A stretch of DNA of 64,000 bases from a virus, in IMG/VR virus record IMGVR_UViG_3300030044_000011; one strand, 5' to 3'. The stretch's first letter is position 1, and the number at the start of each line of letters is the position of its first letter. Below the pieces are notes generated by a model that was given only the letters and a program-made list of their open reading frames with translations, was not told the origin of the DNA and did not search any database. The translations under genes and the position numbers were made by a program. Positions 963-45,402 of the stretch are shown piece after piece.

Positions 963-1039
963 TGGGCGCGGGGGCTGGATTCGAACCAGCGACCTGAAGG
1001 TTATGGGCCTTCCGAGCTACCAGACTGCTCCACCCCGCA
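963..1039 (-). tRNA. tRNA-Met(CAT), fMet-like D arm
   Basis: GCGGGGTGGAGCAGTCTGGTAGCTCG; arm GAAGG-CCCATAA-CCTTC; TTCGAAT; CCA. Confidence 0.9.
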
Positions 1040-1199
1040 TATCCGGGTTCGACATTAGTCTACCCGGCTCAGAGACTTGCCTCGAATACCGCTACTTGAT
1101 TTAGCTACACACAGGCCACTAACCCAAGACAGTCGATTTGATACTTCATTCAGAGGGTCGCTCTACACACATAATACTCAAAGTCAGCTAAGTTGGCTA

Positions 1200-1706
1200 C
1201 TAAATTTTTTCGCCCTTAGCTTTCTCTTCTTCTGCTACTTCCTCATTATACTTCAAACGCTGGGCAAGTTCCTTATCCACCCACGCAATTTCCTGTGGAA
1301 ATTCTTTAAATTGTTTACGAGCCTCAGCGAGTGTCATCTTCCAAATCGGTTGAACCGTACCAACCCCACCGACATCCTTGTTCTTCCAAACCCACTGGCA
1401 GAAGGGGCTTTCTACCCAACAATGCCAATAGGTTCCTAAATCGTCACCCCAGTAGTCTTCCAACTTACAGGGCTCATCATCCGGTTCGTCTCCCCACTTG
1501 CGTTCCCAATTACAAATGAACTTGGGAAGCTTCACATGTGAGAGCCATTCGCATATGTGGGTGCAACAATCCCACGCAAAAAATTCAAGTGCAAGCCAGT
1601 ACCAAGCACACTCTTCCAAATGGATAGAGATTTCAGTGTCTTCGCCTGTGCCCCCGCCGAGCCAGAGACCTGACCAGCGACGTACTCTCCAGTTGAACAA
1701 CTTCAT
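1200..1706 (-). CDS. hypothetical Trp-rich protein
   Basis: 168-aa ORF, AAAGGA RBS. Confidence 0.7.
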   Translation of the reverse strand: MKLFNWRVRRWSGLWLGGGTGEDTEISIHLEECAWYWLALEFFAWDCCTHICEWLSHVKLPKFICNWERKWGDEPDDEPCKLEDYWGDDLGTYWHCWVESPFCQWVWKNKDVGGVGTVQPIWKMTLAEARKQFKEFPQEIAWVDKELAQRLKYNEEVAEEEKAKGEKI

Positions 1707-1721
1707 GGTTGGTTATTCCTT

Positions 1722-1821
1722 TCGGGGTACATCTTCTTCTCGGCGACTTGAAAGTTGAAAACCTTCCTTCCGATTTTCACCGTCCCGAACGGTACGCTCT
1801 GCCAGACTGAGCTACACCCCG
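1722..1821 (-). pseudogene. tRNA-Pro(CGG)-like RNA with T arm replaced by about 48 nt, no CCA
   Basis: Intact acceptor CGGGGTG/TACCCCG, D arm, and TACCG-TTCGGGA-CGGTG arm. Confidence 0.65.
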
Positions 1822-2030
1822 ATTAACCTCTTCGCATCTTCCGCCGCGTCGATGTCCTCCCAAGCCTTCGCTTGAAAGCAGTCGTCGCAGTCCACCTTCG
1901 TCTCCACAGTGTCAATCTCATGCGTGGTCACCCCTGTGCGGCCACAGTAGGTGACATGCAGCGTGGTGGGCATCCTGTACAGACCCTCGGTCGCCATCCC
2001 TGTGTAACGTTTGCGTGATAGATGCATCAT

Positions 2031-2691
2031 TTACCAAATCCCCCGTACGTAGTTTGAGTACGTCCAAACCTGTCCAGTCACGTGGTCTGTGACCTTCCCA
2101 TCCTGCTCCCGGATAGTGCGGCGTTTATCCCCCCGCTGGCCGGTGCCTATCTGCTGGCGACGGTCGGCTACTTCCTTGCCTACCTTTGCCTCTCGCTCCA
2201 ACGCTTCCAGCTTAGCACTCAGGATGATGAGAGCCAACTCTTTATTACGATACTGACTGCGTTCCGCCTCACAGCGCACCATCAACCCGCTTGGAAGATG
2301 ATGAACCCGAACTGCGGTTTCAACCTTATTGACGTTCTGCCCACCCTTACCACCACTTCGCATTGTGTCCCATTCAAGGTCTTTGGGGTCGATGCTGAAT
2401 GTTGTGGTTACCCTCTCTTCAAAGACGGCTACAGTGATTGTTGATGTCTGGCGTCGGCCTCGTCTTTCGGTCGGCGGGACTCGTTGCCACCGATGACCTC
2501 CAGACTCATTAGCAAAGACCTGCTCAACGTCTTTCCCCGTTACGCGGAATACTGCAATACCGGGTCGCGTCTCAAGAATCTCAACGCTAAAGACCCCTCC
2601 GCTGACCCAGCCTTGCATAAATAGCCAACTGGTCAGCCACTAGAAGCTTGGCGTCATCGCCACCTTCTGCTGCTCGAATTTCAACAATCAT
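2031..2691 (-). CDS. RF1-type peptide chain release factor homolog lacking domain 1, expressed via +1 frameshift at 2587-2592 (about 219 aa)
   Basis: ORF1 MIVEIRAAEGGDDAKLL.. with GGAGG RBS; ORF2 has ESGGHRWQRVPPTE (PxT), GGQ and ERSQ..NK; junction GGAGG-GGT-CTT-TAG-C. Confidence 0.9.
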
Positions 2692-2704
2692 ACTGCCTCC
2701 AAAG

Positions 2705-2781
2705 TGGTTCAGGGAGGTGGACTCGAACCACGCTATTCGTTCGACCTTATGAGGGTGAACGCCATACCATCGGACCCCTGT
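2705..2781 (-). tRNA. atypical tRNA-Met(CAT)-like RNA
   Basis: CTCATAA loop, GTGG-TTCGAGT-CCAC T arm, ACCA end; bulged anticodon stem, weak D arm. Confidence 0.6.
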
Positions 2782-2960
2782 GTAATCTGCATGGCCCCTT
2801 GGCGGGGCCATAAGCGCCCTAGACTTTCGTCCTCGGCACCGTTCGTCGCAACACTCAATAGCGTCCAACTATTGAGCACGGTATCAGCATGACTTAAATC
2901 CAACGCCCTCTGGATGAAGGCTGCACGAATTCAGCGGTCGGTTGCTGGCCTACGTTAAAT

Positions 2961-3038
2961 TGGTCGGGGTGGAGGGATTTGAACCCCCGATACCTTGCTC
3001 CCAAAGCAAGTGCGTTAGCCAGACTACGCTACACCCCG
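2961..3038 (-). tRNA. tRNA-Pro(TGG)
   Basis: Canonical cloverleaf, C1-G72, CCA. Confidence 0.95.
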
Positions 3039-3043
3039 TTGAA

Positions 3044-3152
3044 TTGCTGTGGGACTCAGACTCTAGGTGGGAACGACCCACCGCACTGTACCCCGCTTGA
3101 TAAGCAGTTGGCCGTTACCCTACTGAACCAGCACGCTCAGGCCACACAGCAA
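3044..3152 (-). ncRNA. structured ncRNA with long closing stem and tRNA-like arms (possibly Y-RNA-like)
   Basis: TTGCTGTG/CACAGCAA closing stem; GGTGG-GTCGTTC-CCACC and CTGC-TTATCAA-GCGG hairpins. Confidence 0.45.
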
Positions 3153-3155
3153 ACT

Positions 3156-3232
3156 TGGCCCCCATGGTAGGAGTTGAACCTACATCCCTCGGCCTCAACA
3201 TGCCGGTGCTCTACCGTTGAGCTACATCGGGG
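3156..3232 (-). tRNA. tRNA-Asn(GTT)-like with 8-nt anticodon loop
   Basis: Normal D and T arms, G73, CCA; loop ATGTTGAG; bulged acceptor. Confidence 0.65.
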
Positions 3233-3245
3233 ATAAATCTAAACT

Positions 3246-3322
3246 TGGTCAGCCCGGAGAGATTCGAACTCTCGACCCCACCCACCCCAAGGGTGTGCGC
3301 TACCAGACTGCGCTACGGGCTG
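3246..3322 (-). tRNA. tRNA-Pro(GGG)
   Basis: CACCC-TTGGGGT-GGGTG; CCA. Confidence 0.95.
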
Positions 3323-3345
3323 AAACTCTACAATACTACAAAACT

Positions 3346-3422
3346 TGGTCAGGGTGAGAGGATTTGAACCTCCGACTTCTCGTATCCGAAACGAGGACTC
3401 TACCAGACTGAGCTACACCCTG
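3346..3422 (-). tRNA. tRNA-Pro(CGG)
   Basis: CTCGT-TTCGGAT-ACGAG; CCA. Confidence 0.93.
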
Positions 3423-3434
3423 ATGGTAAAAACT

Positions 3435-3522
3435 TGGTCGGGGTGAAGGGACTCGAACCCTCAGTGCGCTTAAGCTCCTGTTTCCAAAACAGGTCGGCTA
3501 CCATCTACCGATTTACACCCCG
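3435..3522 (-). tRNA. tRNA-Pro(TGG) with long variable arm
   Basis: CCTGT-TTTGGAA-ACAGG; 14-nt variable region; CCA. Confidence 0.85.
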
Positions 3523-3540
3523 ATCGATTTACACCCCGAT
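3509..3540. repeat. 16-bp tandem duplication CGATTTACACCCCGAT x2 at the tRNA 5' end
   Basis: Read directly from sequence. Confidence 0.9.
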
Positions 3541-3553
3541 ACGACAACATGAA

Positions 3554-3743
3554 CACCGGGGATGAGAAAGTGGAAATTAGGGAAGTTGGAAATCAACCCT
3601 TCATCACATCCCGGCGTGGCCGCACGGGATGCTGAGGTCTCTAGTGGACTTCAGTCCCGTGCAACATAGGGCACGGTCGAAACGAACGGGTTGGTCGTGT
3701 GAAACTCATATATACATAATACACAGAAAGTCGGTAAGTTCAA
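3554..3743 (-). promoter_or_regulatory. promoter and putative attenuator of the Pro/Met tRNA array
   Basis: TTGAAC-16-TATTAT; alternative pairings 1:2, 2:3, 3:4, 4:5. Confidence 0.65.
3641..3709 (-). CDS. leader peptide MSFTRPTRSFRPCPMLHGTEVH
   Basis: ATG 6 nt after the -10 box (leaderless); Pro codons CCA, CCG, CCT. Confidence 0.65.
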   Translation of the reverse strand: MSFTRPTRSFRPCPMLHGTEVH

Positions 3744-3845
3744 ACACTATTTTTGAATATTCTCTATTTTCTTTTTCCACAGGTCGGGAGTATACTCTGA
3801 ACAGCAGGGTCATACCGACCCTCTGGATACCCATGGGAGGATAGT

Positions 3846-4106
3846 ATGAATCTTGAAGACTTCAAAAATCAACTGAGGATGGACATCCGGCGTATGCAAG
3901 CCGCGTTGGCCGCACTCGAAGGATCAGCAATGGCGGAAACCCCGAAACTATCAGCAAAGACCAAAGAGAAGATTTCCAATAGCATGAAGGCAAACTGGGC
4001 AGGTGGGCGGAAACGTACCTTATCCAAGGCTGTGAAGATCAAGATCGCGGCCTCACAACGTGCCCGTTGGGCGAAGCAGAAGGAAGCAGCAGCAGCGGCG
4101 GCGTAA
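3846..4106 (+). CDS. small basic histone-like DNA-binding protein
   Basis: GGAGG RBS; repeats KISNSMKANWA and KIAASQRARWAK. Confidence 0.75.
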   Translation: MNLEDFKNQLRMDIRRMQAALAALEGSAMAETPKLSAKTKEKISNSMKANWAGGRKRTLSKAVKIKIAASQRARWAKQKEAAAAAA

Positions 4107-4126
4107 CTTCTCTTAGGTCTTCTTAC

Positions 4127-4160
4127 CACCCCCACAGAGAGTACCTGTGGGGGTTATTTT
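4127..4160 (+). terminator. intrinsic terminator
   Basis: CCCCCACAG/CTGTGGGG hairpin followed by TTATTTT. Confidence 0.6.
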
Positions 4161-4276
4161 ATCCCGTGTCCCTTTTTGACCATACGCCTCACCAAGCATT
4201 AAGTAGACTCCGAAATAACCCGTCGTACAACCTTAACTAGGGGGTTGCATCTGATGGGATTGTAAGAGGAGGATAC

Positions 4277-4603
4277 ATGGATTTTGACGACATTGTTAAC
4301 GAACTCAGGGTTCAGCAGCGCCGGATCAATGCGGCTCTTGTTGCTCTTGTGGGGACGGCTCAGGCCGACGCTCCGGTAACACAACCTGCACCAAAGATCA
4401 CTGCAACCCCCAACCACCGTACAACCCGTCGTTCTTCAATGTCTTCAGGAGTGAAGCGGAAGATTTCGCTTGCCATGAAGCAGAACTGGGCAAGCCGGAA
4501 GCCTAAGCTCAAGTTGTCGCCGGAAATCAAGAGCAAGATTTCTTCCTCACAGAAGGCACGCTGGGCGTCGATCAAGGCAGCGGCTCAACAGATGGCAGCT
4601 TAG
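4277..4603 (+). CDS. small basic histone-like protein, paralog of 3846..4106
   Basis: GAGGAGG RBS; same repeat motif. Confidence 0.75.
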   Translation: MDFDDIVNELRVQQRRINAALVALVGTAQADAPVTQPAPKITATPNHRTTRRSSMSSGVKRKISLAMKQNWASRKPKLKLSPEIKSKISSSQKARWASIKAAAQQMAA

Positions 4604-4697
4604 CTGCTCATTCCACCAAAGTGGACTCTGACCTCCATGAGCAGCTTGCCGAGGATGTTCTCGCCTCGTGGCTCATGGGGGCCTTGCTTACATTACA

Positions 4698-5159
4698 TTA
4701 CAGAAACCGCGTCCACTCCCTCGACTTAAGCTGCCAACCCCTGTATGCCTTAATTTTCCCACTCGTAAGTTTGTGAAACTGACGGTAGCTGCTGCTGTTG
4801 ATTCGACAAAATTCTTTCAAATTACTCATCTGCACTTCTATTCCATCTGGATTAGTCAAAGTGTAGGTAACTCGATGTTTGGCGTTATGTCTAGCCTTGT
4901 CACTAAGCTGAGTCCCCTTAGCGGGGCGATTTGCTTGCAGAGCTACAAGTGTGACGGCGGGGACGGGGAGCCCTTTGTGTGACTGAGAAAGACGTTTCTT
5001 TCGAGCACCTGAAATCTTTCGCCCCTTAAGGGCTAAGCTAATTTTCTTCCCCACTTCGGGGGAGCACGAACCGGGAGCAGATTCCGTGCGCTTGGGAGGA
5101 AGCGGGATGGATGCGGTCGCGGGAGTGATTTTTGTCCACTGATACATAACTAGCTCCAA
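4698..5159 (-). CDS. NUMOD3-like DNA-binding protein or homing endonuclease remnant
   Basis: KKISLALKGRK, KRLSQSHKG motifs. Confidence 0.55.
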   Translation of the reverse strand: MELVMYQWTKITPATASIPLPPKRTESAPGSCSPEVGKKISLALKGRKISGARKKRLSQSHKGLPVPAVTLVALQANRPAKGTQLSDKARHNAKHRVTYTLTNPDGIEVQMSNLKEFCRINSSSYRQFHKLTSGKIKAYRGWQLKSREWTRFL

Positions 5160-5206
5160 GTATACAGGATGTATCCACCCCTACAATAAGGTGGATAGTC
5201 GAGTTA

Positions 5207-5704
5207 TTATGCCTGTAATTCCCTTTTACTGTATGTAGAGTAGTATTCGCGAACCTCCATGAGAATCCGACCAAGGTGGTTCAATCCCTCCGGTTCATGT
5301 GGCCCTTGTCTACAAGTCCCATCACACACCCCGAAGAATAGGTCATGCCAATTATTTCCTTCCACCAACTCCGCTGTGAAGGTTGAGATGAGTTTCCGAC
5401 GAAGAATAGTTGGGTAGAATTTCTGCATCAGCAAATCCCGCATGATGCCTATGTTCACTTCCTTCCAATCTGGCCGGAGCTTGCCACTGTCTGAAATGGC
5501 CTTACCCATGCGCTTAGCCCGACCCGCCGTTACCCCGGCGTAGAGAAACTTCTCCCGCTCTTTCAAGTTGAGTGTTTTAGCGGCCTGATACGCATGTTCG
5601 ACTGAAGGATAGGTCACTTCATCCAACACCACACTGCATGGGTAAAAGTTGGAGAGAAACCCCCACGGGTCTTTAAAACGGTCAATCAAAACGGGCAGGT
5701 CCAT
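5207..5704 (-). CDS. NADAR family protein
   Basis: FLSNFY, YPSVEHAYQAAK, LVEGNNWHDLFFG, GLNHLGRILMEVR. Confidence 0.92.
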   Translation of the reverse strand: MDLPVLIDRFKDPWGFLSNFYPCSVVLDEVTYPSVEHAYQAAKTLNLKEREKFLYAGVTAGRAKRMGKAISDSGKLRPDWKEVNIGIMRDLLMQKFYPTILRRKLISTFTAELVEGNNWHDLFFGVCDGTCRQGPHEPEGLNHLGRILMEVREYYSTYSKRELQA

Positions 5705-6114
5705 TAGTTCTTCTTTCCTGCAAGGAGCCGGTCAATCTCTCCTGCGTCATCCACATCTTTTACAATACTATGAAACACACATAGTGCATCAGTGGCTGCT
5801 GTAAAAATTCTACATATCTGTGGTCGGTCATCATAAATAGTGCAACGACCGTTCGTCCCGAGCTTTGGACAAGTGAACCATACATGAGCCCGTGTCCCCT
5901 TATGTGTGTGCCCACCAACCTCCAAGGGAATGTAGGGTAGTTTCTCCCTACGCATTGCAGCCTCGGCGTCTTTACGCCAACTATCCACCTTCCATGAGCG
6001 GTATCGACCAACAGGTGTGGTAAGCATGAACCTCTTGCAACAATGCCCCGGCTCCGGGCATACGCCACAGAGCCGATTAGCTTGATGGTCAATGATTGGG
6101 AATAGGCTACTCAA
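5704..6114 (-). CDS. YkgJ family cysteine-cluster protein
   Basis: CGVC..GHCC..CPKL..RCTIYDDRPQICR. Confidence 0.8.
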   Translation of the reverse strand: MSSLFPIIDHQANRLCGVCPEPGHCCKRFMLTTPVGRYRSWKVDSWRKDAEAAMRREKLPYIPLEVGGHTHKGTRAHVWFTCPKLGTNGRCTIYDDRPQICRIFTAATDALCVFHSIVKDVDDAGEIDRLLAGKKN

Positions 6115-6484
6115 GGGCAGTGGCGACCTCGCTAAGGAATTCTTTTGAATCGATGGCCTTGTCCAGCACCTTCACGAGGTTCAGGGGCGGGTAGTTCTTC
6201 AAAACGTTACGTACAAACGAAGGGTCTGAAGAAAACATCAACACCCGCTGTTTGTCATTATTACGGAGCACTCGTCGCATCAACTCGGCTCCATCCATGT
6301 GAGGCATAGACCAATCGCTTAGGACGAGGGTGAAGCCGTCGTTTGACCCACGGTAGGTTGCAAGCCCCTCAACCCCGTCCTGAGCCTCTACAACGTCAAA
6401 ACCAGCCCCTTTAAGGATGGTTCCGAAATACTCCCGGCAGTTCTTGTCGTCATCCACTAAAAGTACACGAGTTGATAGATTCAT
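6107..6484 (-). CDS. single-domain response regulator (REC)
   Basis: VLLVDDD, LSDWSMPHMDG. Confidence 0.9.
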   Translation of the reverse strand: MNLSTRVLLVDDDKNCREYFGTILKGAGFDVVEAQDGVEGLATYRGSNDGFTLVLSDWSMPHMDGAELMRRVLRNNDKQRVLMFSSDPSFVRNVLKNYPPLNLVKVLDKAIDSKEFLSEVATALE

Positions 6485-7444
6485 ATCCTCGGCCTCTTCA
6501 AAATAGCTTCACGCTGCTCCAGCGTCCAATACCCCAAGTCAAACTCTGCCTTCGTAATAGAGATGAATTTTGGTTGTTCATGTGCGTAGTTAAGTGAATA
6601 GCCTTCCCGGTCTTCTGTCACCCCCACGATGAATCAACCCTTTCCTGTAGCCTTGACTCCCCGTGAACGGAGAGATGAATCCAGAGACTGTTCCTTAATA
6701 GCCGCGTCGGAGAACACCAGACCATACCTATCCCCAAAGATGGCGGTAGCAAGACGTACAGCCTTGTACATATCCCGGAGGTATACCATCTCTTCGTCAG
6801 TGAGGTGGTCACCCATGGCGAACGCTTGAATAAGAGCACGAGGTTCTTTCATGCTCCATCCCGCTTCCCAGACTTTCCATCCGCAATACCGCGCTCGTAG
6901 GAGATTCGCATGGTTTGCTGAAGCACCATGTTAACGGCATCCCGAAGGCTCCGGCCAGCACCAAGCTCCATGAGAATGTAGCCGGTCCAATAGTTGAGCA
7001 ACTCGACAAAAGACATCTCTTCCAGAGTCTTTTCGTGAGACGACTTACTTGCCTTTGGCATGGGTTCCCTTCTTGGCCTCGTTGACGGCCTTGGCGACAA
7101 CACGAGTCGCCTTGGTGGTGTCACGACGGGCGTGCCCCTTGATGGGAGTGTTGCACTCAGCGCAGCGGGTGGATTTGGGCATCGTAAGTCTCCTAGTAGT
7201 TTTTGTGGGCGTCCCAGCCGCCACCTTCGTAGTCAATCTCTTCCTCGCGGTGTGAGAAACTACCCCGCAGGAGAGCCGCGTACTGCCCTGTTCGTTGTTC
7301 CTGCTTGACTGCCTTGCAGGATTTAGAGCAAAACCGAGCCCATCCGCGTTTGACATCAGCGAAACGAGCAGTGAAAGACTTACCACACTGCTTGTTCTCG
7401 CATTTACGCTCAACTCGCGTTGGCATCTATTACCTCACACACTC

Positions 7445-7484
7445 AGTATACCGGGAGTATAGAGGTTTTGGATAGTATTTTAGG
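7445..7484 (-). promoter_or_regulatory. conserved phage promoter (copies at 35231-35270 and 56586-56625)
   Basis: CCTAAAA(A/T)ACTA(G/T)C(T/C)AAAAC-N12-GGTATACT pattern. Confidence 0.7.
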
Positions 7485-7524
7485 GAATTTTTTTATGGGT
7501 AGGTAGCAAAGCAAAGTCGCACCC

Positions 7525-7938
7525 TTATTTCAGCTTATCTCGTACAACCTTATCAGGTGACAACCCATCTTGCCGGTAGTCCTCTAATAGAGCCAGAGAG
7601 TAATCGGCGATAGTAGTGTTAGAGCAATCACCCCAAACCTCAATAATCAATTCGGCGACTCTTTTATACCACGCTATCTTATCCATCTCATTCCTGACTT
7701 CACGAAGCCTATGAATGAAGGAGCGTTTGTCCAGTTCAATAGCCCCAAGCATTACAGCAACGGCACGCCTTGGTCTGAGCAAATCGTAGTGAGGGAACGA
7801 TGTCGGCTGGAACCATTGCCTCTTCATACCGATAGCATCCGCCATGGCGTGAAGCTCATCTATAGTATCCGCAATCATGTGGCAAGCATACTTCCATCGG
7901 CCATACTGTACTTAACGGATTGGATCGACATAAACCAT
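7525..7938 (-). CDS. DUF4031-like protein with in-frame TAA at codon 9
   Basis: MVYVDPIR*VQYGRWKYACHMIADTIDELHAMADAIGMKRQWFQ..PHYDL. Confidence 0.7.
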
Positions 7939-8357
7939 TAAGCAGGTATAAACGGCTGGTTCTTTTGTTCCCAGCCGTAGCAAAGATCACATTCGCAACA
8001 GAAGCCCTCTTCATCGTGCTCCTCGGCCAAATGTCCACATCTACAGACACGCCTGACGTATCGGGAGCATCCTGTGTCGTGTCCTCCCCGTAAATCGCGT
8101 TCACATTCTCCGCACTCAAGCCCCACGTGTTCTCCGAAGATGGTTCACCCACACTTGTTTCGCAGCATCCCTCATCGCGTTACGAGTGTCAATGCAGCTA
8201 TCGCAACCATAGCTTTTAGGCCCACCACCACATTCAGGACAACAGTCACAAGAGGGAATATCATCCTCAAAAGGGTCTCTGCAAAACTGACAAGCACGTC
8301 TAATGGTCACCGGCATTTTTCTTATCCCTCACACTGTAAAATTCATTACCATGCATG

Positions 8358-8693
8358 TTAATACCCTAAATCCTCACCTCTCCAAGCATACAAATCATCA
8401 ATAGCCAACTCATCCAGTCGGCCTATATTCTTGGCTCCGAAGTTTGGGGTTTGGGCATGACAGTTGGGACACAGAAAACGGATGTTATCCGGTTCATTGT
8501 TCAGCCAGTCGCCATCAATGTGGTCGATTTGAAGAACAATCGGTCGGCCTATCCATTCAGGGTTTTTGTGTAAGGGACATCTAGGATCAGAGCACCGATA
8601 GGGGACACCTGATTCCAACATAGCCCGTCGCAAGCGAGTCACATGCTCTCGATGTTTCTTGCGATTCCTAACTAGAATCTGGCTCCAGTGCAT
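8358..8693 (-). CDS. HNH endonuclease
   Basis: LQIDHIDGDWLNNEPDNIRFLCPNCH. Confidence 0.9.
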   Translation of the reverse strand: MHWSQILVRNRKKHREHVTRLRRAMLESGVPYRCSDPRCPLHKNPEWIGRPIVLQIDHIDGDWLNNEPDNIRFLCPNCHAQTPNFGAKNIGRLDELAIDDLYAWRGEDLGY

Positions 8694-8705
8694 TCATTGT
8701 AATAC

Positions 8706-8793
8706 TGGTACCCGACCCCGGACTCGAACCGGGAACCGCATTTCGCTTCTCGGGAGTTTAAGCCCCGCGCCTTTGCCATTTGACCAGTCGGGC
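8706..8793 (-). tRNA. tRNA-Leu(TAA)
   Basis: CGGGG-CTTAAAC-TCCCG; long V arm; CCA. Confidence 0.92.
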
Positions 8794-8800
8794 ATAACTT

Positions 8801-8889
8801 TGGTCGGGAAGGTGGGACTTGAACCCACAACCGTTTCACACTTATCGAGTGTTTGAGACTCGCGCCTTTGCCAATTTGACCACATCCCG
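8801..8889 (-). tRNA. tRNA-Leu(CAA)
   Basis: CGAGT-CTCAAAC-ACTCG; long V arm; CCA. Confidence 0.88.
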
Positions 8890-9005
8890 ATTTGAAACTA
8901 TTGGAGACCAGTTACTCAATCGCCTTGGCGTGTATCTCGCCTACCACAGCTTTCGCCAGTCATACGGGGATCAGCGTACGTCCGTTTCACAGACTTATCC
9001 AAATT

Positions 9006-9092
9006 TGGTGCGCCCGAAGGGACTCGAACCCATACCCCCTTGCGGGGATTAGCACCTCAAGCTAACGCGGCTACCAATTACGCCACGGGCGC
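9006..9092 (-). tRNA. tRNA-Leu(GAG)
   Basis: TTAGC-TTGAGGT-GCTAA; CCA. Confidence 0.93.
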
Positions 9093-9153
9093 AAACTTCT
9101 ACTACAACAAAACTTGGTGCTTCACATTCTTACCACAAGTGCCTGTGCCAGAA

Positions 9154-9231
9154 TGGTAGCCGAGGTGGGATTCGAACCCACACTGTACGGATTTTGAGAC
9201 CGTTGCCTCCTGCCAGTTGCGCTACTCGGCC
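9154..9231 (-). tRNA. tRNA-Leu(CAA), short variable arm
   Basis: ACGGT-CTCAAAA-TCCGT; CCA. Confidence 0.9.
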
Positions 9232-9246
9232 ATTACATCAAAACTT

Positions 9247-9330
9247 TGGTAGCCCCACTCGGACTCGAACCGAGACGCCTTTCGACATTAGTTCCTAAGA
9301 CTAACGTGTCTGCCATTCCACCATGGGGCC
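9247..9330 (-). tRNA. tRNA-Leu(TAG)
   Basis: TTAGT-CTTAGGA-ACTAA; CCA. Confidence 0.93.
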
Positions 9331-9338
9331 GTTAAAAC

Positions 9339-9569
9339 CTATCGCTCCGTACGCTGCGTCTTCGGAAGGTCGAGACCCCAGCCACGCTGGATATTCTCGG
9401 AGTCCTGACGCATGTACACAGCCGCAACTTTCCATTCACCACTCTCGGGCTCATCCTTCAGGGTGATAACAGAGCCGCGCTTCACACCTCGGTTAGCGGG
9501 AACCCACGCCACCTTACAGTGAATACCGCGTTCTGACTCTTGCTGCAACATTGTTTGAACTAATTCCAT
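9339..9569 (-). CDS. hypothetical protein
   Basis: 76-aa ORF filling the gap between tRNAs. Confidence 0.6.
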   Translation of the reverse strand: MELVQTMLQQESERGIHCKVAWVPANRGVKRGSVITLKDEPESGEWKVAAVYMRQDSENIQRGWGLDLPKTQRTER

Positions 9570-9586
9570 TTCTTTCTCTTTCTTTA

Positions 9587-9674
9587 TGGTGCCCGGAGAG
9601 GGATTCGAACCCCCACGAGAATTAACCCACTGGCTTCTAAGACCAGCGCGTCTCGCCAATTTCGCCATCCGGGC
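9587..9674 (-). tRNA. tRNA-Leu(TAG)
   Basis: CTGGT-CTTAGAA-GCCAG; CCA. Confidence 0.93.
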
Positions 9675-9679
9675 ACATC

Positions 9680-10318
9680 TTAAATTCGACCCCTTCTCCA
9701 TCCAATCAAAACGTAAGAGGTCAAATCGTTTTGCTTAATCTTGATGGCTCTTTCACCGTCCGTTACCCAACGAGTACCGAACTGTGAATTCTTATCCCCC
9801 GCTCTATTCACCAATGCCATCTTTGCTTTGGTGTCCGCCCTGTGCTTCCGACCAGTCCAAGTGCGTTTACTCGCCGCTGAAATCTTAGCTGACACATCCG
9901 GTTCAACACCATGTTCCCTAATCTGGTTGGCCCGAGCCTCACTCATCATCTTGTAATGCTGTGGGTCTCGATGACTCTGAGAACTGTGTGACACTCTGGC
10001 GGCATTGGCGTAGTCGGCCAACCCTTCTCGATTGATATAGTCAAACCCACCAGAGCCCCCTTTTCTCAAATTCATACAGAGAGGGTTACCCCGCCAACAT
10101 TGAATCAACTCATCCTCTTTGCCAAATGCTGATTCAACATCGAGGTAGATGAACAGGACTTCCTTATGGAAGTTTTGTTCCCCATATTTTGCAACGGCTC
10201 GTTTGATGTATGTACCGGAACCGAGGTACGCATCATCAGGGTCTTTCGTTTTGTGAACCCCGAAGTAGAACTTGCCGTTGAGCAGGTTGACGGTTTTGTA
10301 AACCGTGTAGTATGTCAT
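9680..10318 (-). CDS. GIY-YIG (Seg-like) homing endonuclease
   Basis: VYKTVNLLNGKFYFGVH, YLGSG, NLRKGGSGG, NUMOD3-like tail. Confidence 0.85.
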   Translation of the reverse strand: MTYYTVYKTVNLLNGKFYFGVHKTKDPDDAYLGSGTYIKRAVAKYGEQNFHKEVLFIYLDVESAFGKEDELIQCWRGNPLCMNLRKGGSGGFDYINREGLADYANAARVSHSSQSHRDPQHYKMMSEARANQIREHGVEPDVSAKISAASKRTWTGRKHRADTKAKMALVNRAGDKNSQFGTRWVTDGERAIKIKQNDLTSYVLIGWRRGRI

Positions 10319-10363
10319 GAACCTATCAGTGCCCTCTACATAAGATACTGATAATCACGAATG

Positions 10364-10448
10364 TGCATGGAGTAGGATTTGAACCTACGTAGCCCCAAGG
10401 GGCGGGTGTTTTACAGACACCTAGTTTTAACCACTCACTCATCCATGC
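10364..10448 (-). tRNA. tRNA-Tyr(GTA), CCA not encoded
   Basis: GGTGT-CTGTAAA-ACACC; long V arm. Confidence 0.9.
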
Positions 10449-10549: not shown

Positions 10550-10711
10550 TTACTGCTTCGGAACATGTTGAAGATGAAGTGTACGCACAGCCTCAAGGTT
10601 ACGCTGTGCTGCTTCTCTCGTAGTTCCCGAGGTCACCAGACCCCAAGTTCTATCTTCAGCCACCCAACGCTTTGTTTCCGCGTCGAGCCAAAATTGTTCC
10701 GTTTCAAACAT
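10550..10711 (-). CDS. HicB-like antitoxin domain protein (53 aa)
   Basis: GGAG RBS; WVAEDRTWGLVTSGTTREAAQRNLEAV matches the HicB pattern. Confidence 0.6.
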   Translation of the reverse strand: MFETEQFWLDAETKRWVAEDRTWGLVTSGTTREAAQRNLEAVRTLHLQHVPKQ

Positions 10712-39308: not shown

Positions 39309-39384
39309 TGGTGTCGCCGATGGGAATCGAACCCACCATCATCTGATTGAAAGTCAGAGGTCCAGACCGATAGACGGCGGCGAC
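39309..39384 (-). tRNA. tRNA-Glu(TTC)
   Basis: TCTGA-CTTTCAA-TCAGA; CCA. Confidence 0.93.
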
Positions 39385-39438
39385 AAACTTAAATCCGGGT
39401 GCCTTACGTTGACTCCTCGATACACGAAACTCATAACT

Positions 39439-39553
39439 TGGTGCCGGGGTAGGTATCGAAGCCTACAAACTCACAAAACCCGTTCGCATAAACGGGCATA
39501 CTTTGTGATGCCTATGGATGCCTCCAGCGAATCTACCAATTCTTCCACCCGGC
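39439..39553 (-). ncRNA. 115-nt tRNA-like RNA with greatly extended central arm
   Basis: GCCGGG/CCCGGC-ACCA; D-loop AATTGGTAGA; T arm GTAGG-CTTCGATA-CCTAC. Confidence 0.6.
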
Positions 39554-39559
39554 GTAGCT

Positions 39560-39635
39560 TGGTGCCCTCGGTAGGAATCGAACCTACGACTTCTTCCGTG
39601 TGAAGGAAGCACTCGTACCGCTGAGTTACGAGGGC
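39560..39635 (-). tRNA. tRNA-Val(CAC)
   Basis: CTTCC-TTCACAC-GGAAG; CCA. Confidence 0.93.
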
Positions 39636-39832
39636 GAAACTTATTCTCAAGGAGGGGCATCGAACCCCCATCTCCGCCACGAACGGGCGGTGTCCTTACC
39701 GCTTGTCACTCCGACATCAGAGGCTATTACTAGCTTGGTGCTGACGGAACCCAGTTACATGCTGCTCAGTATATCGACAGCGGAGCAACATTTACCCGTC
39801 ATTGCTCTGCCATGTTAGACGACCTTGAAACT

Positions 39833-39907
39833 TGGTAGCCCTAGAGGGAGTCGAACCCTCATTCTCACCTTGAAAGGGTGCCTTCCTAGCCGTTAGAAGA
39901 TAGGGCC
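39833..39907 (-). tRNA. tRNA-Glu(TTC)
   Basis: CACC-CTTTCAA-GGTG; CCA. Confidence 0.93.
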
Positions 39908-39927
39908 ATAAACTACCACCGATTACT

Positions 39928-40003
39928 TGGACGCGGAGACGAGGATTTAACTCGTGTCTCAACCTTTGCAGGGTCGCGCCTGATTCGCCTCGGCCACTCC
40001 GCA
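39928..40003 (-). tRNA. tRNA-Cys(GCA), atypical T-loop
   Basis: CGACC-CTGCAAA-GGTTG; U73; CCA. Confidence 0.85.
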
Positions 40004-40340
40004 TTAAAAACTCTTGCTTCTGCTGGCACACAGGCCGCACAAAGGTGCTTTGCCTCGTGCTTGAAACTCTGTCCCGACCCCGTCTCGAAAACTACAGTGA
40101 AGCCAATATCATCGAAGTGTGGGCACTCTGGTATACCTTCCAACTTGCAGAACTCCGATAGTTCATAAGCCATCACCATCGTGATCCTCAGGGTGGTAAG
40201 CATCCCACACTTTCAATACCGCAATCAAAACAAAAATACCAATCAAAACGAAAAAAGTTCCAACATCAACGTGCCCGGTGAAACCATACTCGGGAGTCCA
40301 TGGTGCTTGCATAGTAGACCTCTACTATGCTTCTCATATT

Positions 40341-40415
40341 TGGTAGCCCTACGGGGTGTCGAACCCCGGTTGTCAGGTTGAGAACCTGCTTTCCTAACCG
40401 CTAGAAGATAGGGCC
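40341..40415 (-). tRNA. tRNA-Glu(CTC)
   Basis: CAGG-TTCTCAA-CCTG; CCA. Confidence 0.93.
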
Positions 40416-40429
40416 AAACTACAAACTAG

Positions 40430-40513
40430 TGACGAGTGAAGGATTCGAACCTTCGTTCCCGCCCTTCGCATAAAGCTACTAAGCGAGTTTTTAGGCCACT
40501 AAAGTAACCCGTC
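40430..40513 (-). ncRNA. tRNA-like RNA with expanded anticodon loop
   Basis: GACGGGT/ACTCGTC acceptor; canonical T arm; no 7-nt anticodon loop. Confidence 0.6.
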
Positions 40514-40517
40514 AAAC

Positions 40518-40566
40518 TGGAGCCGAGGGGGCGTGGTTATCCGCCACGGGATTTCCCTTACTCGGC
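40518..40566 (-). ncRNA. 49-nt T-armless mini-tRNA-like RNA (GAT loop)
   Basis: GCCGAG/CTCGGC-TCCA; CGTGG-CGGATAA-CCACG. Confidence 0.5.
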
Positions 40567-40798
40567 ATAAACTCGATTAACTGCGTCCGTCTTCACTTTA
40601 CTAGCCACCCGCCAAGGTCATGGTTGGGGAAGCAACTTTCGCTAGAGCTATCTTGGTGACCCCTACTCTTCCTTTCGGTACCATGGGTATGGGTCAGAGC
40701 CCATAAATCACCGCAGCCTTCACAGCGTGACAAAGCGACTTGCCACTTACGCACTAAGATACACCGTGTTCTGTAATCACACTATGCACTGTGAAACT

Positions 40799-40831
40799 TG
40801 GTGGATGTGACAGGAGTCGAGCTACACACCC
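40799..40831 (-). ncRNA. 33-nt Ala-identity minihelix
   Basis: GGGTGTG/CACATCC-ACCA with G3:U70. Confidence 0.5.
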
Positions 40832-41396
40832 AAAACCTCTTCTACCGCTTCATCAACGGTGGCGATGGCAATCACTTTGCCAGTTTCTGTCGTTCTCGGC
40901 CACCGTAGTTTACCTATGCATTCATCACCCTTATACACGCAGATACTGTACTTCCCGCTTCTCTCACCATCGTTCTCACATAGTGATAAAGTCGGGTCTT
41001 TCGAAATTGCAATTACTGCGTCAATAAAAGTCATTCACCCTCATCCACCAACTCAACCAAGAGTTGTATAGCTTCAATCTCGCGGTCTCCAACCTGTGAG
41101 ACCTTACCTGTTACTGTGTCCGTGACCTTGAGCGGCCATTGCTTTGCCTTGATGTCGGCGATGCTGACAGTCGGACAGCTTACTAACGTGAACTCAGGTA
41201 CACTATACTTCATTCAATCCACACTTCTCACAAAGGTCAGGGTCGTCTTCATCGCTGAGTGGTGCCTTACAACTCAAGCACCGCTTGTATGTGTCGGGCT
41301 CTTCCAACCCCGCGTACCACGGACTGCAAATACATTCACCCACACAAACATCGTTTTCGCAAACCGCGTTGAACTTCATCTCTTCCTAACTATTCA

Positions 41397-41500
41397 TGCA
41401 ACAGGTGGGATTCGAACCCACGGCGTCCATAACAATCCGCCAGCGATATAGGCCCTTAACCATGAGACGTGGAATGCTCTACCAACTGAGCTACCATTGC
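41397..41500 (-). ncRNA. tRNA-like RNA with insertion in the anticodon region
   Basis: Canonical D arm and T arm; TCCA/TGGA enclose about 40 nt. Confidence 0.65.
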
Positions 41501-41600
41501 ACAAACTTGGTGGACGCAGGGGACTTGGCACCCCATCGCTCGGCGTTACCACTATGGACGCCCACATTTCAATTCCTTAAGCCGAGTTCCGGACTTAACT

Positions 41601-41679
41601 TGGTGGAGCTATGGGGACTCGAACCCCACTGGATTCCTCATTGCGAATGAGGTGAACACCCCCGGCATTCCCTAGCCCC
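41601..41679 (-). tRNA. tRNA-Ala(CGC)
   Basis: CCTCA-TTCGCAA-TGAGG; G3:U70; CCA. Confidence 0.9.
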
Positions 41680-41763
41680 AAACTTTCGGGAGGAGAGGTT
41701 CTACGCATCTCACACGTTGAGAGCAAATCCCCTCTATCTCCCTGCATCTGTCAGACTGTCGTG

Positions 41764-41831
41764 TAGACACGGAGAGATTCGAACTCTCATTTCCCCTCGA
41801 TAGGGGCGTCCTACCATTAGACGACGAGCCT
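41764..41831 (-). pseudogene. tRNA-like gene with shortened anticodon loop
   Basis: Glu/Gln-like D arm; CCCCT-ATCG-AGGGG; normal T arm. Confidence 0.6.
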
Positions 41832-42439
41832 CAGCCCGACAAACCCTTAACCCAAACACTTACCGAACTCTTTGCAACCCCGAGTAAAGCTGCGATTTGG
41901 GCTTTACAAATTCCTTGTTCAAACAACTCCTGCGCTTTCATTCGTTCAACCGCTTTTATATTTCTCAACCTTGCGGCGGCGGAGCCTATCGCTGATAATC
42001 CTCTTTGCTTTGCCATCTCCGATGACCCACGAGCGCCACTACGATTGAAATTGTTGCGAATCATATCCCGATAGTTAGCGTCTGTCTTCCAACGCTCCGC
42101 GCTGTTAGTCCTATTGGCCGCTCGAACCCTCCACCCTTGGTTGGGTTGCTGATTTATCCAGTCGAAGCCACCACTCCCACCTTGTCTCAGGTTGTAGCAC
42201 AAAGGGTCGGCTCGATACGTTTCAATCAGTTCGTATTCTTTAGCAAATGCCTCCCCTGAGTTGTCGAAGATGAAGCACACGTTCTTTATGAACGACTGCT
42301 CACCGTGCTTACGAATCGCCGCCTTCAGAACCTTACCTGACCCAAGGTACCCGTCGTACGGGTTCTTGGTTTTGTGGACGCCGAAGTAATACTTTCCGTT
42401 CACCAAATTCTGTGTTCGATACACTGTGTAAAATATCAT
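41831..42439 (-). CDS. GIY-YIG (Seg-like) homing endonuclease with C-terminal HTH
   Basis: Paralog of 9680..10318; KAQIAALLGVAKSSVSVW. Confidence 0.85.
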   Translation of the reverse strand: MIFYTVYRTQNLVNGKYYFGVHKTKNPYDGYLGSGKVLKAAIRKHGEQSFIKNVCFIFDNSGEAFAKEYELIETYRADPLCYNLRQGGSGGFDWINQQPNQGWRVRAANRTNSAERWKTDANYRDMIRNNFNRSGARGSSEMAKQRGLSAIGSAAARLRNIKAVERMKAQELFEQGICKAQIAALLGVAKSSVSVWVKGLSG

Positions 42440-42505
42440 GAACCTATCAGCCTCTCAGGTTTCTGAGGACTTAACCTCTACTAAAGAGGTTGATAGTCAC
42501 GAATG

Positions 42506-42578
42506 TGCGCCTTGTAGGAATCGAACCTACGGTCCCTTCCATGTCAAGGAAGTGCTCTAGCCGCTGAGCCAAAGGCGC
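42506..42578 (-). tRNA. tRNA-Val(GAC), CCA not encoded
   Basis: CTTCC-TTGACAT-GGAAG. Confidence 0.9.
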
Positions 42579-42652
42579 AAAACTAGTTAGCGGCTGCAAG
42601 CGCGTCCGTCCTGCATTTAATCCCTAAACCTGAGGGAACCACACTTTAAAGT

Positions 42653-42729
42653 TGGCGGGGACGACGGGGCTCGAACCCGCGACCTCTACCGTGACAGGGT
42701 AGCGTTCTAACCAACTGAACTACATCCCC
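42653..42729 (-). tRNA. tRNA-Asp(GTC)
   Basis: CTACC-CTGTCAC-GGTAG; G73; CCA. Confidence 0.95.
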
Positions 42730-42739
42730 AACTTCAAAC

Positions 42740-42814
42740 TGGCGGAGACGGCGAGGGTTGAACTCGTATATTCTTCCGTGACAGGGAAGCCCATTGCCAT
42801 TATGGTACGTCTCC
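42740..42814 (-). tRNA. tRNA-Asp(GTC)
   Basis: TTCC-CTGTCAC-GGAA; G73; CCA. Confidence 0.9.
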
Positions 42815-42908
42815 TCAAGGGTGTGTTCCGCAGCTTTTAGTTCTCACTGCAAGCCCTAAGCCCGTGCGCCTTTGTGCGGTACGACGTTAGGTGCTACCCT
42901 TTGAAACT

Positions 42909-42984
42909 TGGCGGGGCTGATGGGACTCTAACCCACGATAGACGGCTCGACAAGCCGCTGCATTAGACGCTATGCTACAACCCC
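42909..42984 (-). tRNA. tRNA-Asp(GTC)
   Basis: GCGGC-TTGTCGA-GCCGT; G73; CCA. Confidence 0.85.
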
Positions 42985-43178
42985 TTGGTGGACGTGTCGT
43001 GCCGCTTACGCTGTCATTTAACGACCGGGTACCTCATCTCTCTAATTACGAGTGTGCTGTTCAACTGCACACACCCATACGATTTGAGCTACCACAACAG
43101 TGTCGTTCAGTAGAGCCATTTGGCTGGATTGTTCATACCCGAAGGGAACTCTCCGGCATCACATCCTCTACTAAAATT

Positions 43179-43253
43179 TGGTGGACCTAGAGGGGATTGA
43201 ACCCTCGACTTCTTCCATGCCATGGAAGCACTCTCCCACTGAGTTACAGGCCC
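43179..43253 (-). tRNA. tRNA-Ala(GGC)
   Basis: CTTCC-ATGGCAT-GGAAG; G3:U70; CCA. Confidence 0.92.
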
Positions 43254-43261
43254 CTAAAACA

Positions 43262-43471
43262 TCAAAACCTTTTGCCACTGTTCAGCATATTTATCCTTTC
43301 TAATACCGAGGGCTCCGTCAACAGCAGACGTAAATTCTCATTCGGCTGTGTTGGCCTTTCCAACATTGCAACAAACTCTTGCCACTGCTCAGGACTGAGG
43401 CGAATGTTGTTCTCTTCACCAGCCAGTCGGGTATGAACGCTTCTCATGTCGGCATCGAAGTTAATCTTCAT
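43262..43471 (-). CDS. TacA/DUF1778-like antitoxin C-terminal domain protein (69 aa)
   Basis: AAAGGAG RBS; IRLSPEQWQEFVAMLERPTQPNENLRLLL. Confidence 0.75.
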   Translation of the reverse strand: MKINFDADMRSVHTRLAGEENNIRLSPEQWQEFVAMLERPTQPNENLRLLLTEPSVLERINMLNSGKRF

Positions 43472-43487
43472 CGCTCTCCTTTCAAAT

Positions 43488-43563
43488 TGGAGGCGATGAT
43501 GGGATTCGAACCCATGCATAACGGTTTTGCAGACCGCCGCGTTAACCACTTCGCCACATCGCC
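43488..43563 (-). tRNA. tRNA-Cys(GCA)
   Basis: CTGCAAA loop; U73; CCA. Confidence 0.95.
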
Positions 43564-43581
43564 TATAACACCAACAAAACT

Positions 43582-43655
43582 TGGAGCGGATAGTCAGATT
43601 TGAACTGACGGTGACAGGGTGGAAGCCTGTTGCCTTACCGCTTGGCTATACCCGC
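43582..43655 (-). tRNA. tRNA-Gly(TCC)
   Basis: ACAGG-CTTCCAC-CCTGT; U73; CCA. Confidence 0.93.
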
Positions 43656-43881
43656 TTTGAATCAGAGATATTTTCGTACCTCCAGTGGTCCGAATCGGTA
43701 GCTCTCATATGAGCTACATCCCCACATAAGAGAACTGTTCAATCGGAAGGTCTTTCCAAAAGACCAACTCCGCCACCAGAAATAGTACCTCCACATATCT
43801 CCTCAATTTCTCGACGCCTCTCCGCCGTGCCACACCACTTTAGTCCGCAGGACTCGGTAGGTGTCACCCCGCTTAAAACTC

Positions 43882-44277
43882 TGCACTAGACTTATAGCCG
43901 GAGTTCTGTCCAGAGGGTTACCCCTCCTGTACAATCATTCGTCTCGGCCAGCCGTTACCGTCTGGCTCTAGCCCCCAACCCGCCGATTCATAACGGTACG
44001 AGCAGTACCTGTCGGCCTATTTGAGGTTGCACCGCGTAGAGATTGCCCGTTTCACCCGAATTTAATCGGCTCGTCTCTGTTGCTCTAATCGTCACACTCA
44101 ACATCGGACGGGTTGTTCCCATAGGGTTGGTGGAAATCAACCAGACGTATAGCTGCGTCCCCTTACGCTACGTCCCCGAACAAGTGTGCTAGGGTGTTAC
44201 CCTATACGCTGCTCTGTGGTGCTCCGAACTTCCTCGAAGTGGTATTGCGCCACGTCGCGATTGTCCAGTCTAGTGCA
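43882..44277 (-). ncRNA. rnpB: RNase P RNA
   Basis: P1 TGCACTAGACT/AGTCTAGTGCA; GAGGAAGTTCGGAGC and ACAGAACTCCGGCTAT (P4); GCAACAGAGA, GGGTGAAACGG. Confidence 0.92.
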
Positions 44278-44304
44278 TACTTAATGAAACCGAGGCCGAA
44301 GCTG

Positions 44305-44649
44305 TTACTGTACTGCCGACGTGCGCTGTACTGCCACGCTACGAAGGTAAGCACGCATCTCGTCCGAGAACTCATTGAACATCTCACCCTTATCCAACCA
44401 GTGCAAAATGGTCTCCCAGTTCTCTTCCTCAGGCGTCCACTGACCCTCCAAGCCGTAGCAAGAGCAGTGACCGCCACTTACTGAGAACAGCTTCCCGTCC
44501 TTCTCGAACAGAACGAATGCCGAACCCGAATAGTCCTCGTAGCTATACACCGCTGCGTAGACCAACGCATCCTTCAATTCATCCTGACCAATATTGAACT
44601 GGTCGCATACATCCTCAACGCTGCCGAACCTATCTACAAATACTTCCAT
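44305..44649 (-). CDS. conserved phage hypothetical protein
   Basis: AAGGAG RBS; YEDYSG..GGHCSCYGLEGQW. Confidence 0.75.
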   Translation of the reverse strand: MEVFVDRFGSVEDVCDQFNIGQDELKDALVYAAVYSYEDYSGSAFVLFEKDGKLFSVSGGHCSCYGLEGQWTPEEENWETILHWLDKGEMFNEFSDEMRAYLRSVAVQRTSAVQ

Positions 44650-44718
44650 CGTTTTCTCCTTGTGGTACAAACCATCGAGAGAAACGGTGAGGTAATTGTT
44701 CGACCTCGGTTTCAAATT

Positions 44719-44797
44719 TGGTGGACCGTCAGAGATTTGAACTCTGCTGATATTCTGTGTGCAAGACAGATAAACACTCCTAGCATTTCCACGGCCC
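44719..44797 (-). tRNA. tRNA-Ala(TGC)
   Basis: TCTGT-CTTGCAC-ACAGA; G3:U70; CCA. Confidence 0.9.
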
Positions 44798-44934
44798 AAT
44801 ATTGTCAAACATCATGTAATCACCGGCTGGCCGGGATTAAAAATCTTGGTGGCTTTGGCTCACGCCGGGGCACCACCCGCGCCCCTCGAAGTAAACTTAC
44901 CCAGTCTTGTGGACTGGAGTCTTGCTCCAGAGCT

Positions 44935-45009
44935 TGGAGCGGCTGGTGGGATTCGAACCCACGACCTCTTCCTTGGCAAGGAAGCGTTCTACCACTGAAC
45001 TACAGCCGC
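44935..45009 (-). tRNA. tRNA-Gly(GCC)
   Basis: Canonical; TTGCCAA loop; CCA. Confidence 0.96.
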
Positions 45010-45039
45010 ATATACTTCAATACTGCAAAAACCAAAACT

Positions 45040-45115
45040 TGGTGCTCCAAGTGGGACTCGAACCCACGATAGTCTGCTTGTAGGGCAGATGATTTAGCCG
45101 CTAATCTACCGGAGC
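45040..45115 (-). tRNA. tRNA-Val(TAC)
   Basis: TCTGC-CCTACAA-GCAGA; CCA. Confidence 0.92.
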
Positions 45116-45127: not shown

Positions 45128-45159
45128 AAAAACGAAAGGCCAGCCTTTTCGGCTGGCCT
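45128..45159 (-). terminator. attenuator terminator upstream of the GNN/Cys array
   Basis: AGGCCAGCC-GAAAA-GGCTGGCCT-TTCGTTTTT. Confidence 0.9.
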
Positions 45160-45179
45160 CGGTTTCGATTTCAGACTGG

Positions 45180-45323
45180 TTAGTTAGTCTTAATCTCTCC
45201 CGAGGCCATGGTATCCTCTCCCGCGCAACCGGCTTCAGCGGCTGCGACAGCTACGACTACGCCCACGACGCCAGTGTTCGGTGCGTCCATGGTGTTAATC
45301 GAAATGTTGGTACGGATAGTCAT
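45180..45323 (-). CDS. leader peptide MTIRTNISINTMDAPNTGVVGVVVAVAAAEAGCAGEDTMASGEIKTN
   Basis: AAGGA RBS; promoter TTGCAC-18-TATTAT at 45344-45373; overlaps antiterminator. Confidence 0.85.
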   Translation of the reverse strand: MTIRTNISINTMDAPNTGVVGVVVAVAAAEAGCAGEDTMASGEIKTN

Positions 45324-45402
45324 GGTGTTTGTCCTTCTGTTACATAATACGCAGAAAGTTGAAATTTGTGCAAGCTGTTTTTCATTTATTTTCACAGCTT
45401 AT

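Follow-up and report, generated by a model that had tools for sequence, protein, structure and literature searches.

A 69-aa protein encoded inside a phage tRNA gene array is most likely a stand-alone toxin-binding module derived from a bacterial TacA antitoxin, as judged from profile comparisons. Our main reading, that the protein functions as an anti-toxin decoy which is at least co-transcribed with the array, is given a probability of about 0.62. The gene was found in the window (the whole 64-kb stretch of DNA that was analyzed), which also encodes a ribonucleotide reductase, DnaB, a RecA-like protein, homing endonucleases, a release-factor-like protein and a NADAR protein and contains 31 tRNA calls. 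As these phage-type genes and tRNA calls lie on a contig of 310 kb, the DNA is considered to be that of a jumbo phage. The coordinates of the features discussed below are listed in Table 1.

Table 1. Features of the trimmed TacA gene, its tRNA array and the leader (coordinates of the window)
Feature	Coordinates	Strand	Basis or comment
RHH-less TacA/DUF1778 gene, 69 aa	43262..43471	-	Pfam, profile-profile comparison and dN/dS
Purine-rich ribosome-binding site	43474..43483	-	Comparable element 5' of ATG in relatives
Residues 1-17, clade-specific conserved N-terminal segment	43421..43471	-	Predicted helix 5-17
Residues 19-59, putative toxin-binding module (strand-helix-Pro linker-helix)	43295..43417	-	Equivalent of KacA betaB-alphaC-alphaD
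Residues 60-69 and stop, tail private to this copy	43262..43294	-	Alignment of variants
tRNA-Ala(GGC), directly downstream of gene	43179..43253	-	
tRNA-Cys(GCA), directly upstream of gene	43488..43563	-	
tRNA-Gly(TCC)	43582..43655	-	Keeps G71 and U73
RNase P RNA, complete, class A, within array	43879..44276	-	Rfam RF00010, 162.5 bits
tRNA-Gly(GCC)	44935..45009	-	Keeps G71 and U73
Intrinsic terminator hairpin, then T run	45136..45160	-	
Leader ORF, 47 aa, GNN-codon run and one Cys codon	45180..45323	-	Codons match the tRNAs of the array
Antiterminator 5' arm	45200..45207	-	Pairs with 45155-45162, overlapping terminator 5' arm
Sigma-70-like promoter before leader	45344..45372	-	Consensus match only; similar hexamers in three relatives

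The trimmed TacA gene and its relatives

The ORF, on the minus strand, runs for 69 codons from an ATG start to a TGA stop. The motif I-x-L-S-x-E-x-W-x-x-F-x3-L-x-x-P-x-x-P-N-x-x-L, quoted in a preliminary description of this ORF that did not give the strand, matches residues 23-47 exactly. A longer version of the gene (95 aa, with a GTG start) was rejected because its frame crosses tRNA-Cys and because the conserved start is the ATG with its N-terminus. Predicted helices at residues 27-38 and 45-52 flank a proline linker, and residues 1-17 are in partial register with the distal end of TacA helix B.

The Pfam profile TacA1 (PF08681, the same as DUF1778) matches the protein with 29.6 bits (E-value: 6.8e-7, cut-off: 21 bits). 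The similarity to DUF1778 suggested previously therefore holds, for the C-terminal half only: the match spans positions 43-75 of the 80 in the profile. In a profile-profile comparison (hhalign) with 43 full-length TacA proteins (probability 99.5, E-value: 1.2e-22), residues 13-61 align to positions 50-96 of the full-length profile, and for the RHH strand and first helix there is no alignment before position 42-50 of 96. This comparison agrees with the earlier statement that an N-terminal RHH domain is missing, and as the RHH strand and first helix are gone, the phage protein is not expected to bind an operator. The protein is not a canonical GNAT-RHH type II antitoxin, as the N-terminal RHH is absent and the gene is not in an operon with a GNAT toxin gene. 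The term "antitoxin mimic" used in the preliminary description is right about the likeness to antitoxins but not in its wording, as the protein is a trimmed true homologue of TacA. The best sequence match in the PDB is the antitoxin chain 7ak7_C (residues 57-95), a match that is weak alone (E-value: 0.06); the toxins linked to related cellular TacAs find their best match in chain A of this entry. We take 7ak7 to be Salmonella TacA2-TacT2, and 5fvj and 7f36 to be TacT. No family for the protein was found in PHROGs or NCBIfam, and Foldseek gave no match with the lone model (pTM 0.30), a result that is uninformative for a short helical chain.

A homologue search with the single sequence matched the 69-aa protein alone; its variants came from an alignment-based search. 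Eight variants with 56-68% identity score 96-126 bits, everything else scores at most 58 bits, and these eight form one side of a tree branch whose support is weak (88/85, from 39 columns). A homologue is present in an IMG/VR record, one variant lies on a 346-kb contig behind ribonucleotide reductase, as in this phage, and no close relative was found by tblastn among isolated phage genomes and plasmids. The dN/dS of the gene is 0.17-0.31 against five relatives (a sixth pair is saturated), and pairwise values across the variants with finite dS are 0.07-0.31, several pairs being saturated. Full-length variants have only in-frame indels and share the start codon, ribosome-binding site and N-terminus. 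The 69-aa ORF is a maintained gene under purifying selection.

Column conservation is 0.90 for residues 1-17 and 0.91 for residues 44-59 (ending LLTEPSVLE), and these best-conserved stretches reach beyond the motif quoted earlier. Nearly all of the residues that are invariant in cellular TacAs (F33, L37, P40, L47, L50, T52, E53 and P54) are kept in the phage group. At positions 44-45, the group has an N-E signature, while most cellular relatives have K-P or R-P. The length of the linker differs among the phage variants, and position 49 is Leu in this copy and Lys or Arg in its relatives. We also considered whether the phage protein avoids glycine as an adaptation to blocked Gly-tRNA and rejected this idea: glycine makes up 1.4% in the phage group but just 0.3% in the corresponding region of cellular TacAs, which are almost devoid of it there already.

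The tRNA array and its leader

The gene starts 16 nt after tRNA-Cys(GCA) and ends 8 nt before tRNA-Ala(GGC), and its position is fixed: the latter is the next downstream tRNA in all seven variant loci with DNA, and the upstream side, where present, has tRNA-Gly(TCC) and then Cys or Asp. The preliminary description had placed the gene inside a Gly/Ala/Cys tRNA array. While this location stands, the content must be extended, as the array consists of Val, Gly, Ala, Cys, Asp and Glu tRNAs and an RNase P RNA. In one relative (L024) with the same leader and array, the slot is empty and tRNA-Cys abuts tRNA-Ala, which indicates that the gene is accessory.

In the window, tRNA genes for the same amino acid, or for codons with the same first letter, cluster together, in blocks at 250-10448 (-), with Met, Pro and Leu/Tyr tRNAs, and at 39309-45115 (-), with Val/Gly/Ala/Asp/Glu and Cys tRNAs. 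Inside each block lies one of two related GIY-YIG-like ORFs: the first, at 41831-42439 (-), has weak GIY-YIG and HTH matches, and the second, at 9680-10318 (-), has no Pfam match. The release-factor-like gene extends across two overlapping frames at 2031-2868 (-), where a 195-aa ORF has PCRF and RF-1 domains and an upstream 93-aa ORF ends in a release-factor-like N-terminal stretch; these frames are possibly a prfB-like frameshift or a split gene. In a related phage, the array ends in a tRNA called as SeC (anticodon TCA; L017 6540-6612).

The leader, which has five Gly codons, is conserved in L017, L022 and L024. In four of four phages, its 3' part can pair with the 5' arm of the terminator, and a compensatory T/A pair is found in the antiterminator of L022 and L024. 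With the leader's 3' part masked, the folding analysis gives the terminator hairpin. The GNN attenuator invoked in the preliminary description is thus upheld, in terms of folding and conservation only, as a terminator/antiterminator switch conserved in four phages. For the GNAT toxin AtaT2, ribosome stalling at each of the four Gly codons has been reported. Co-induction of the gene by the GNN/Cys leader is plausible because this switch is conserved and because a low-power search identified no promoter-like site on the gene's strand between the leader and the gene. Provided that the protein does neutralize a toxin, we see somewhat better than an even chance that the attenuator leader governs the gene, which would then be co-induced with the array.

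A second family of RHH-less TacA proteins (P0034, 54 aa) is encoded in another tRNA array, with RtcB, an RNA ligase and an HD protein (L025 243-7007 and L044; also in an IMG/VR record), and this array does not have the Gly/GNN order. In L025, one tRNA is called with the anticodon TTA (stop). Because L024 lacks the gene and the P0034 array lacks the Gly/GNN order, the slot may reflect merely that tRNA arrays collect anti-defence genes. An antidote unrelated to the attenuator, with its own expression or carried as a passenger in a highly transcribed region, would be compatible with these two observations and with the distance between the gene and the terminator (1.67 kb and five tRNAs). We regard this explanation as unlikely, although it deserves serious consideration: the gaps to the flanking tRNAs are just 16 nt and 8 nt, the low-power promoter search between the leader and the gene was negative and the slot is unchanged while synonymous sites are near saturation.

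Evidence for a GNAT toxin as the probable target

Among the nearest cellular loci in a set of one-per-species genomes, 9 of 15 are from Acidobacteriota. These 15 loci encode mostly full-length TacAs, and a GNAT gene adjoins in 12 of them. Sequence relationships thereby suggest that the donor of the gene, and perhaps also the host of the phage, belongs to the Acidobacteriota. On the group of 7ak7, 5fvj and 7f36, the toxin of one close-relative locus (L019) and its family reach 150-158 bits, compared with 70-87 bits on KacT and entries like it. Most GNAT toxins, including TacT and TacT2, are specific for Gly-tRNA (PMC9177977). In KacAT, the C-terminal hook of the antitoxin wraps a toxin monomer in what is described as a high-affinity contact (PMC6698736), and AtaR neutralizes its toxin via the C-terminus (PMC7758455).

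The preliminary description had proposed the prediction of a complex with a GNAT toxin as a check. With the L019 toxin as a stand-in, the predicted complex scores 0.74, compared with 0.01 for the best control; solved look-alikes exist, and memory of these in the prediction is possible. Of 80 solved complexes, 58 reached the score mark used, as did 2 of 110 mismatched pairs. The runs have at least 55% of their contacts in common, and the partner pLDDT is 66 or higher. The modelled interface consists of residues 21-58, with residues 23-25 paired with the toxin, while residues 1-17 lack a confident placement, so that the model speaks neither for nor against a duplication of the hook by these residues or a substitution by them for the contacts of a second antitoxin chain. 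The prediction shows likeness to TacAT complexes, as distinct from binding. We judge it probable that the phage protein neutralizes a GNAT toxin.

In KacAT, RHH helix A and the extended helix from additional antitoxin chains contribute to neutralization as well, and these contacts are absent from the phage protein; its N-terminal helix might replace them. KacA R77 is required for neutralization in KacAT. At the equivalent position, the phage group has Asn or Lys, whereas 74 of 103 cellular relatives have Arg and six have Asn, among them the toxin-linked P0030. On the tRNA side, TacT recognizes U73 and G71 (PMC9976931). As both bases are kept in the two phage tRNA-Gly genes, these tRNAs should also be TacT substrates, and extra tRNA alone would not escape the toxin; escape of phage tRNA-Gly via acceptor-stem changes was rejected on the same grounds.

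A different use of the hook can be envisaged, in which it has been adapted to bind another protein (such as a non-toxic host acetyltransferase or a translation factor) and the N-terminal helix gives specificity. Residues 1-17 are as conserved as the end of the hook (0.90 vs. 0.91), the N-terminus is unlike cellular TacA before residue 13 and the phage-group N-E at 44-45 replaces the K-P or R-P of most cellular relatives. However, residues invariant in toxin-linked cellular TacAs are kept and the model puts residues 21-58 on the toxin, and we consider such re-use improbable.

The earlier statement that no toxin gene is adjacent was confirmed, as tRNA genes flank the gene on both sides. A GNAT-toxin HMM gave no match in six frames of the 64-kb window (of a contig of ~310 kb) or in any of the phage loci fetched. 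No GNAT toxin was present in three related viral records (26, 89 and 42 kb, with the relatives' records being 8-29% complete), and none was annotated within 20 kb around P0004. These results bear on the proposal that the protein is the antitoxin for a GNAT toxin of the phage itself, encoded elsewhere and used for superinfection exclusion or for host shut-off with self-protection. Approximately 246 kb of the contig lies outside the 64 kb searched, and Dolichospermum phage Dfl-JY45 carries a TacA-like gene adjoining an acetyltransferase gene. Given that the toxin searches were negative and that loss of the RHH removes the autoregulation used by such pairs, this proposal has a low probability.

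An equally low probability is assigned to the protein being a saboteur of the host system, which would join or displace host TacA and so break the repressor complex or free the toxin to stop host translation. Owing to conditional cooperativity, the host operon responds to the ratio of antitoxin to toxin; in addition, the phage protein lacks Arg at the R77-equivalent position and its conserved N-terminal helix has no assigned partner in the complex model. All of these features would suit such a role. Toxin freed in this way would stall phage translation too, however, since the phage tRNA-Gly keep the bases read by TacT; moreover, the RHH that dimerizes TacA is missing and the entire toxin-facing hook is conserved. 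Finally, decay of a toxin-antitoxin cassette that had integrated at a tRNA gene, a frequent type of insertion site, would fit the missing toxin and RHH, the non-conserved tail and the Leu at position 49 of this copy, but this reading is largely refuted by the dN/dS analysis (0.07-0.31), by indels that are in-frame only and by the start codon, ribosome-binding site and N-terminus common to all full-length members, and is extremely improbable.

Proposed mechanism, related systems and significance

In the mechanism that we propose for the decoy, a TacA fragment would have kept the toxin-wrapping hook, shed the DNA-binding ribbon and acquired a new conserved N-terminus. During infection, the protein would bind a TacT-type tRNA-acetylating toxin of the host (probably one of the Acidobacteriota, with a toxin that is probably Gly-tRNA-specific) and hold it inactive, so that translation could continue. 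The gene would most likely share the transcript of the GNN tRNA array. When Gly-tRNA is acetylated, ribosomes would stall on the Gly codons of the leader, the antiterminator would form, and the tRNAs, RNase P RNA and antidote would then be made together. The complete circuit, in which a stall sensor in Gly/Ala/Val/Glu/Asp/Cys codons would detect attack on the cognate tRNAs and induce their replacements, the RNase P RNA and a single-chain antidote to toxins that acetylate Gly-tRNA, is put forward tentatively, at rather less than even odds. The literature that was searched, mostly without subscription journals, contained no TacAT-type system shown to defend against phage, no phage protein tested as an inhibitor of GNAT toxins and no phage tRNA array under attenuation.

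The phage protein has true sequence homology to TacA, KacA and AtaR over the C-terminal strand-helix-Pro linker-helix hook, and by spacing W61, P71, N75 and L78 of KacA correspond to W30, P40, N44 and L47 of the phage protein. These antitoxins grip a GNAT toxin, and the phage protein is modelled to do likewise. Unlike them, it has no RHH strand or first helix and no toxin gene beside it, it has a new conserved N-terminus of 17 residues and an R77 equivalent that is Asn or Lys, and its gene lies in the tRNA array of a jumbo phage.

By analogy, the protein most likely works like the phage orphan antitoxins against DarTG1. These NADAR-type anti-DarT proteins of T-even phages are likewise relatives of a host antitoxin that occur without the toxin, and there too an N-terminal domain has been lost (PMC11257639, PMC13728456). 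Anti-DarT is, however, a tested enzyme that reverses a DNA modification, whereas the phage TacA hook is a putative stoichiometric binder of a tRNA-modifying toxin. A lone NADAR gene is also present in the window itself (5207-5704 (-), E-value: 1.1e-21). Phage tRNAs that counter the tRNA nucleases of PARIS and of Septu/retron systems (PMC13728456) similarly keep translation going under tRNA attack, but they act by resistance or overproduction. Against an acetylase that recognizes U73 and G71 of the acceptor end, the phage tRNA-Gly described here offer no escape, and this is in line with a requirement for a protein inhibitor.

Other TacA-like genes have been found in phages or in related settings. 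ORF106 of the lytic cyanophage S-CREM1, which has 24 tRNA genes, is annotated as TacA and occurs without a toxin; it is proposed as a counter-defence from annotation only, and the table there gives no TacAT pair for the host of S-CREM1 (PMC9964418). The gene for a 68-aa RHH-less TacA (L014 2100-2306) immediately follows a pair of genes, one for a methyltransferase and one SacI-like restriction gene, with no tRNAs. The cultured Dolichospermum phage Dfl-JY45 has a complete TacA-like and acetyltransferase pair (L061 2489-3269) that is annotated merely as "ICP1 protein" and "NAT-SF domain". In the Atlas, there are clusters of 65-69-aa TacA1 proteins with 64-99 members, which are treated as a lead only. 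Within the window, a 53-aa ORF upstream of Tyr/Leu tRNAs (10550-10711 (-)) has a weak match to DUF7387 that is below the cut-off (E-value: 3.5e-4), and its top Atlas match is a HicB-antitoxin cluster (0.89, also a lead only). From its sequence, this ORF may be a second trimmed antitoxin, HicB-like, behind a Leu/Tyr sensor.

Phage orphan antitoxins are already known as a strategy, and RHH-less TacA fragments are widespread, as the Atlas clusters indicate; what is new is a trimmed TacA in an attenuated tRNA-array setting. Both the role of GNAT toxin-antitoxin pairs and the reason why the majority narrowed to Gly-tRNA have been stated to be open (PMC9177977). A toxin-binding half that is kept under purifying selection beside tRNA-Gly genes is indirect evidence that GNAT toxins fire during infection. 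The finding also suggests why tRNA supply falls short against acetylases, and it links an antidote to a codon-sensing switch. As the gene is small (58-69 aa) and could be set against a cloned toxin, the question is cheap to test. If true, the proposed circuit would demonstrate natural restriction of phages by TacAT-type systems and would supply a small inhibitor with which to test it.
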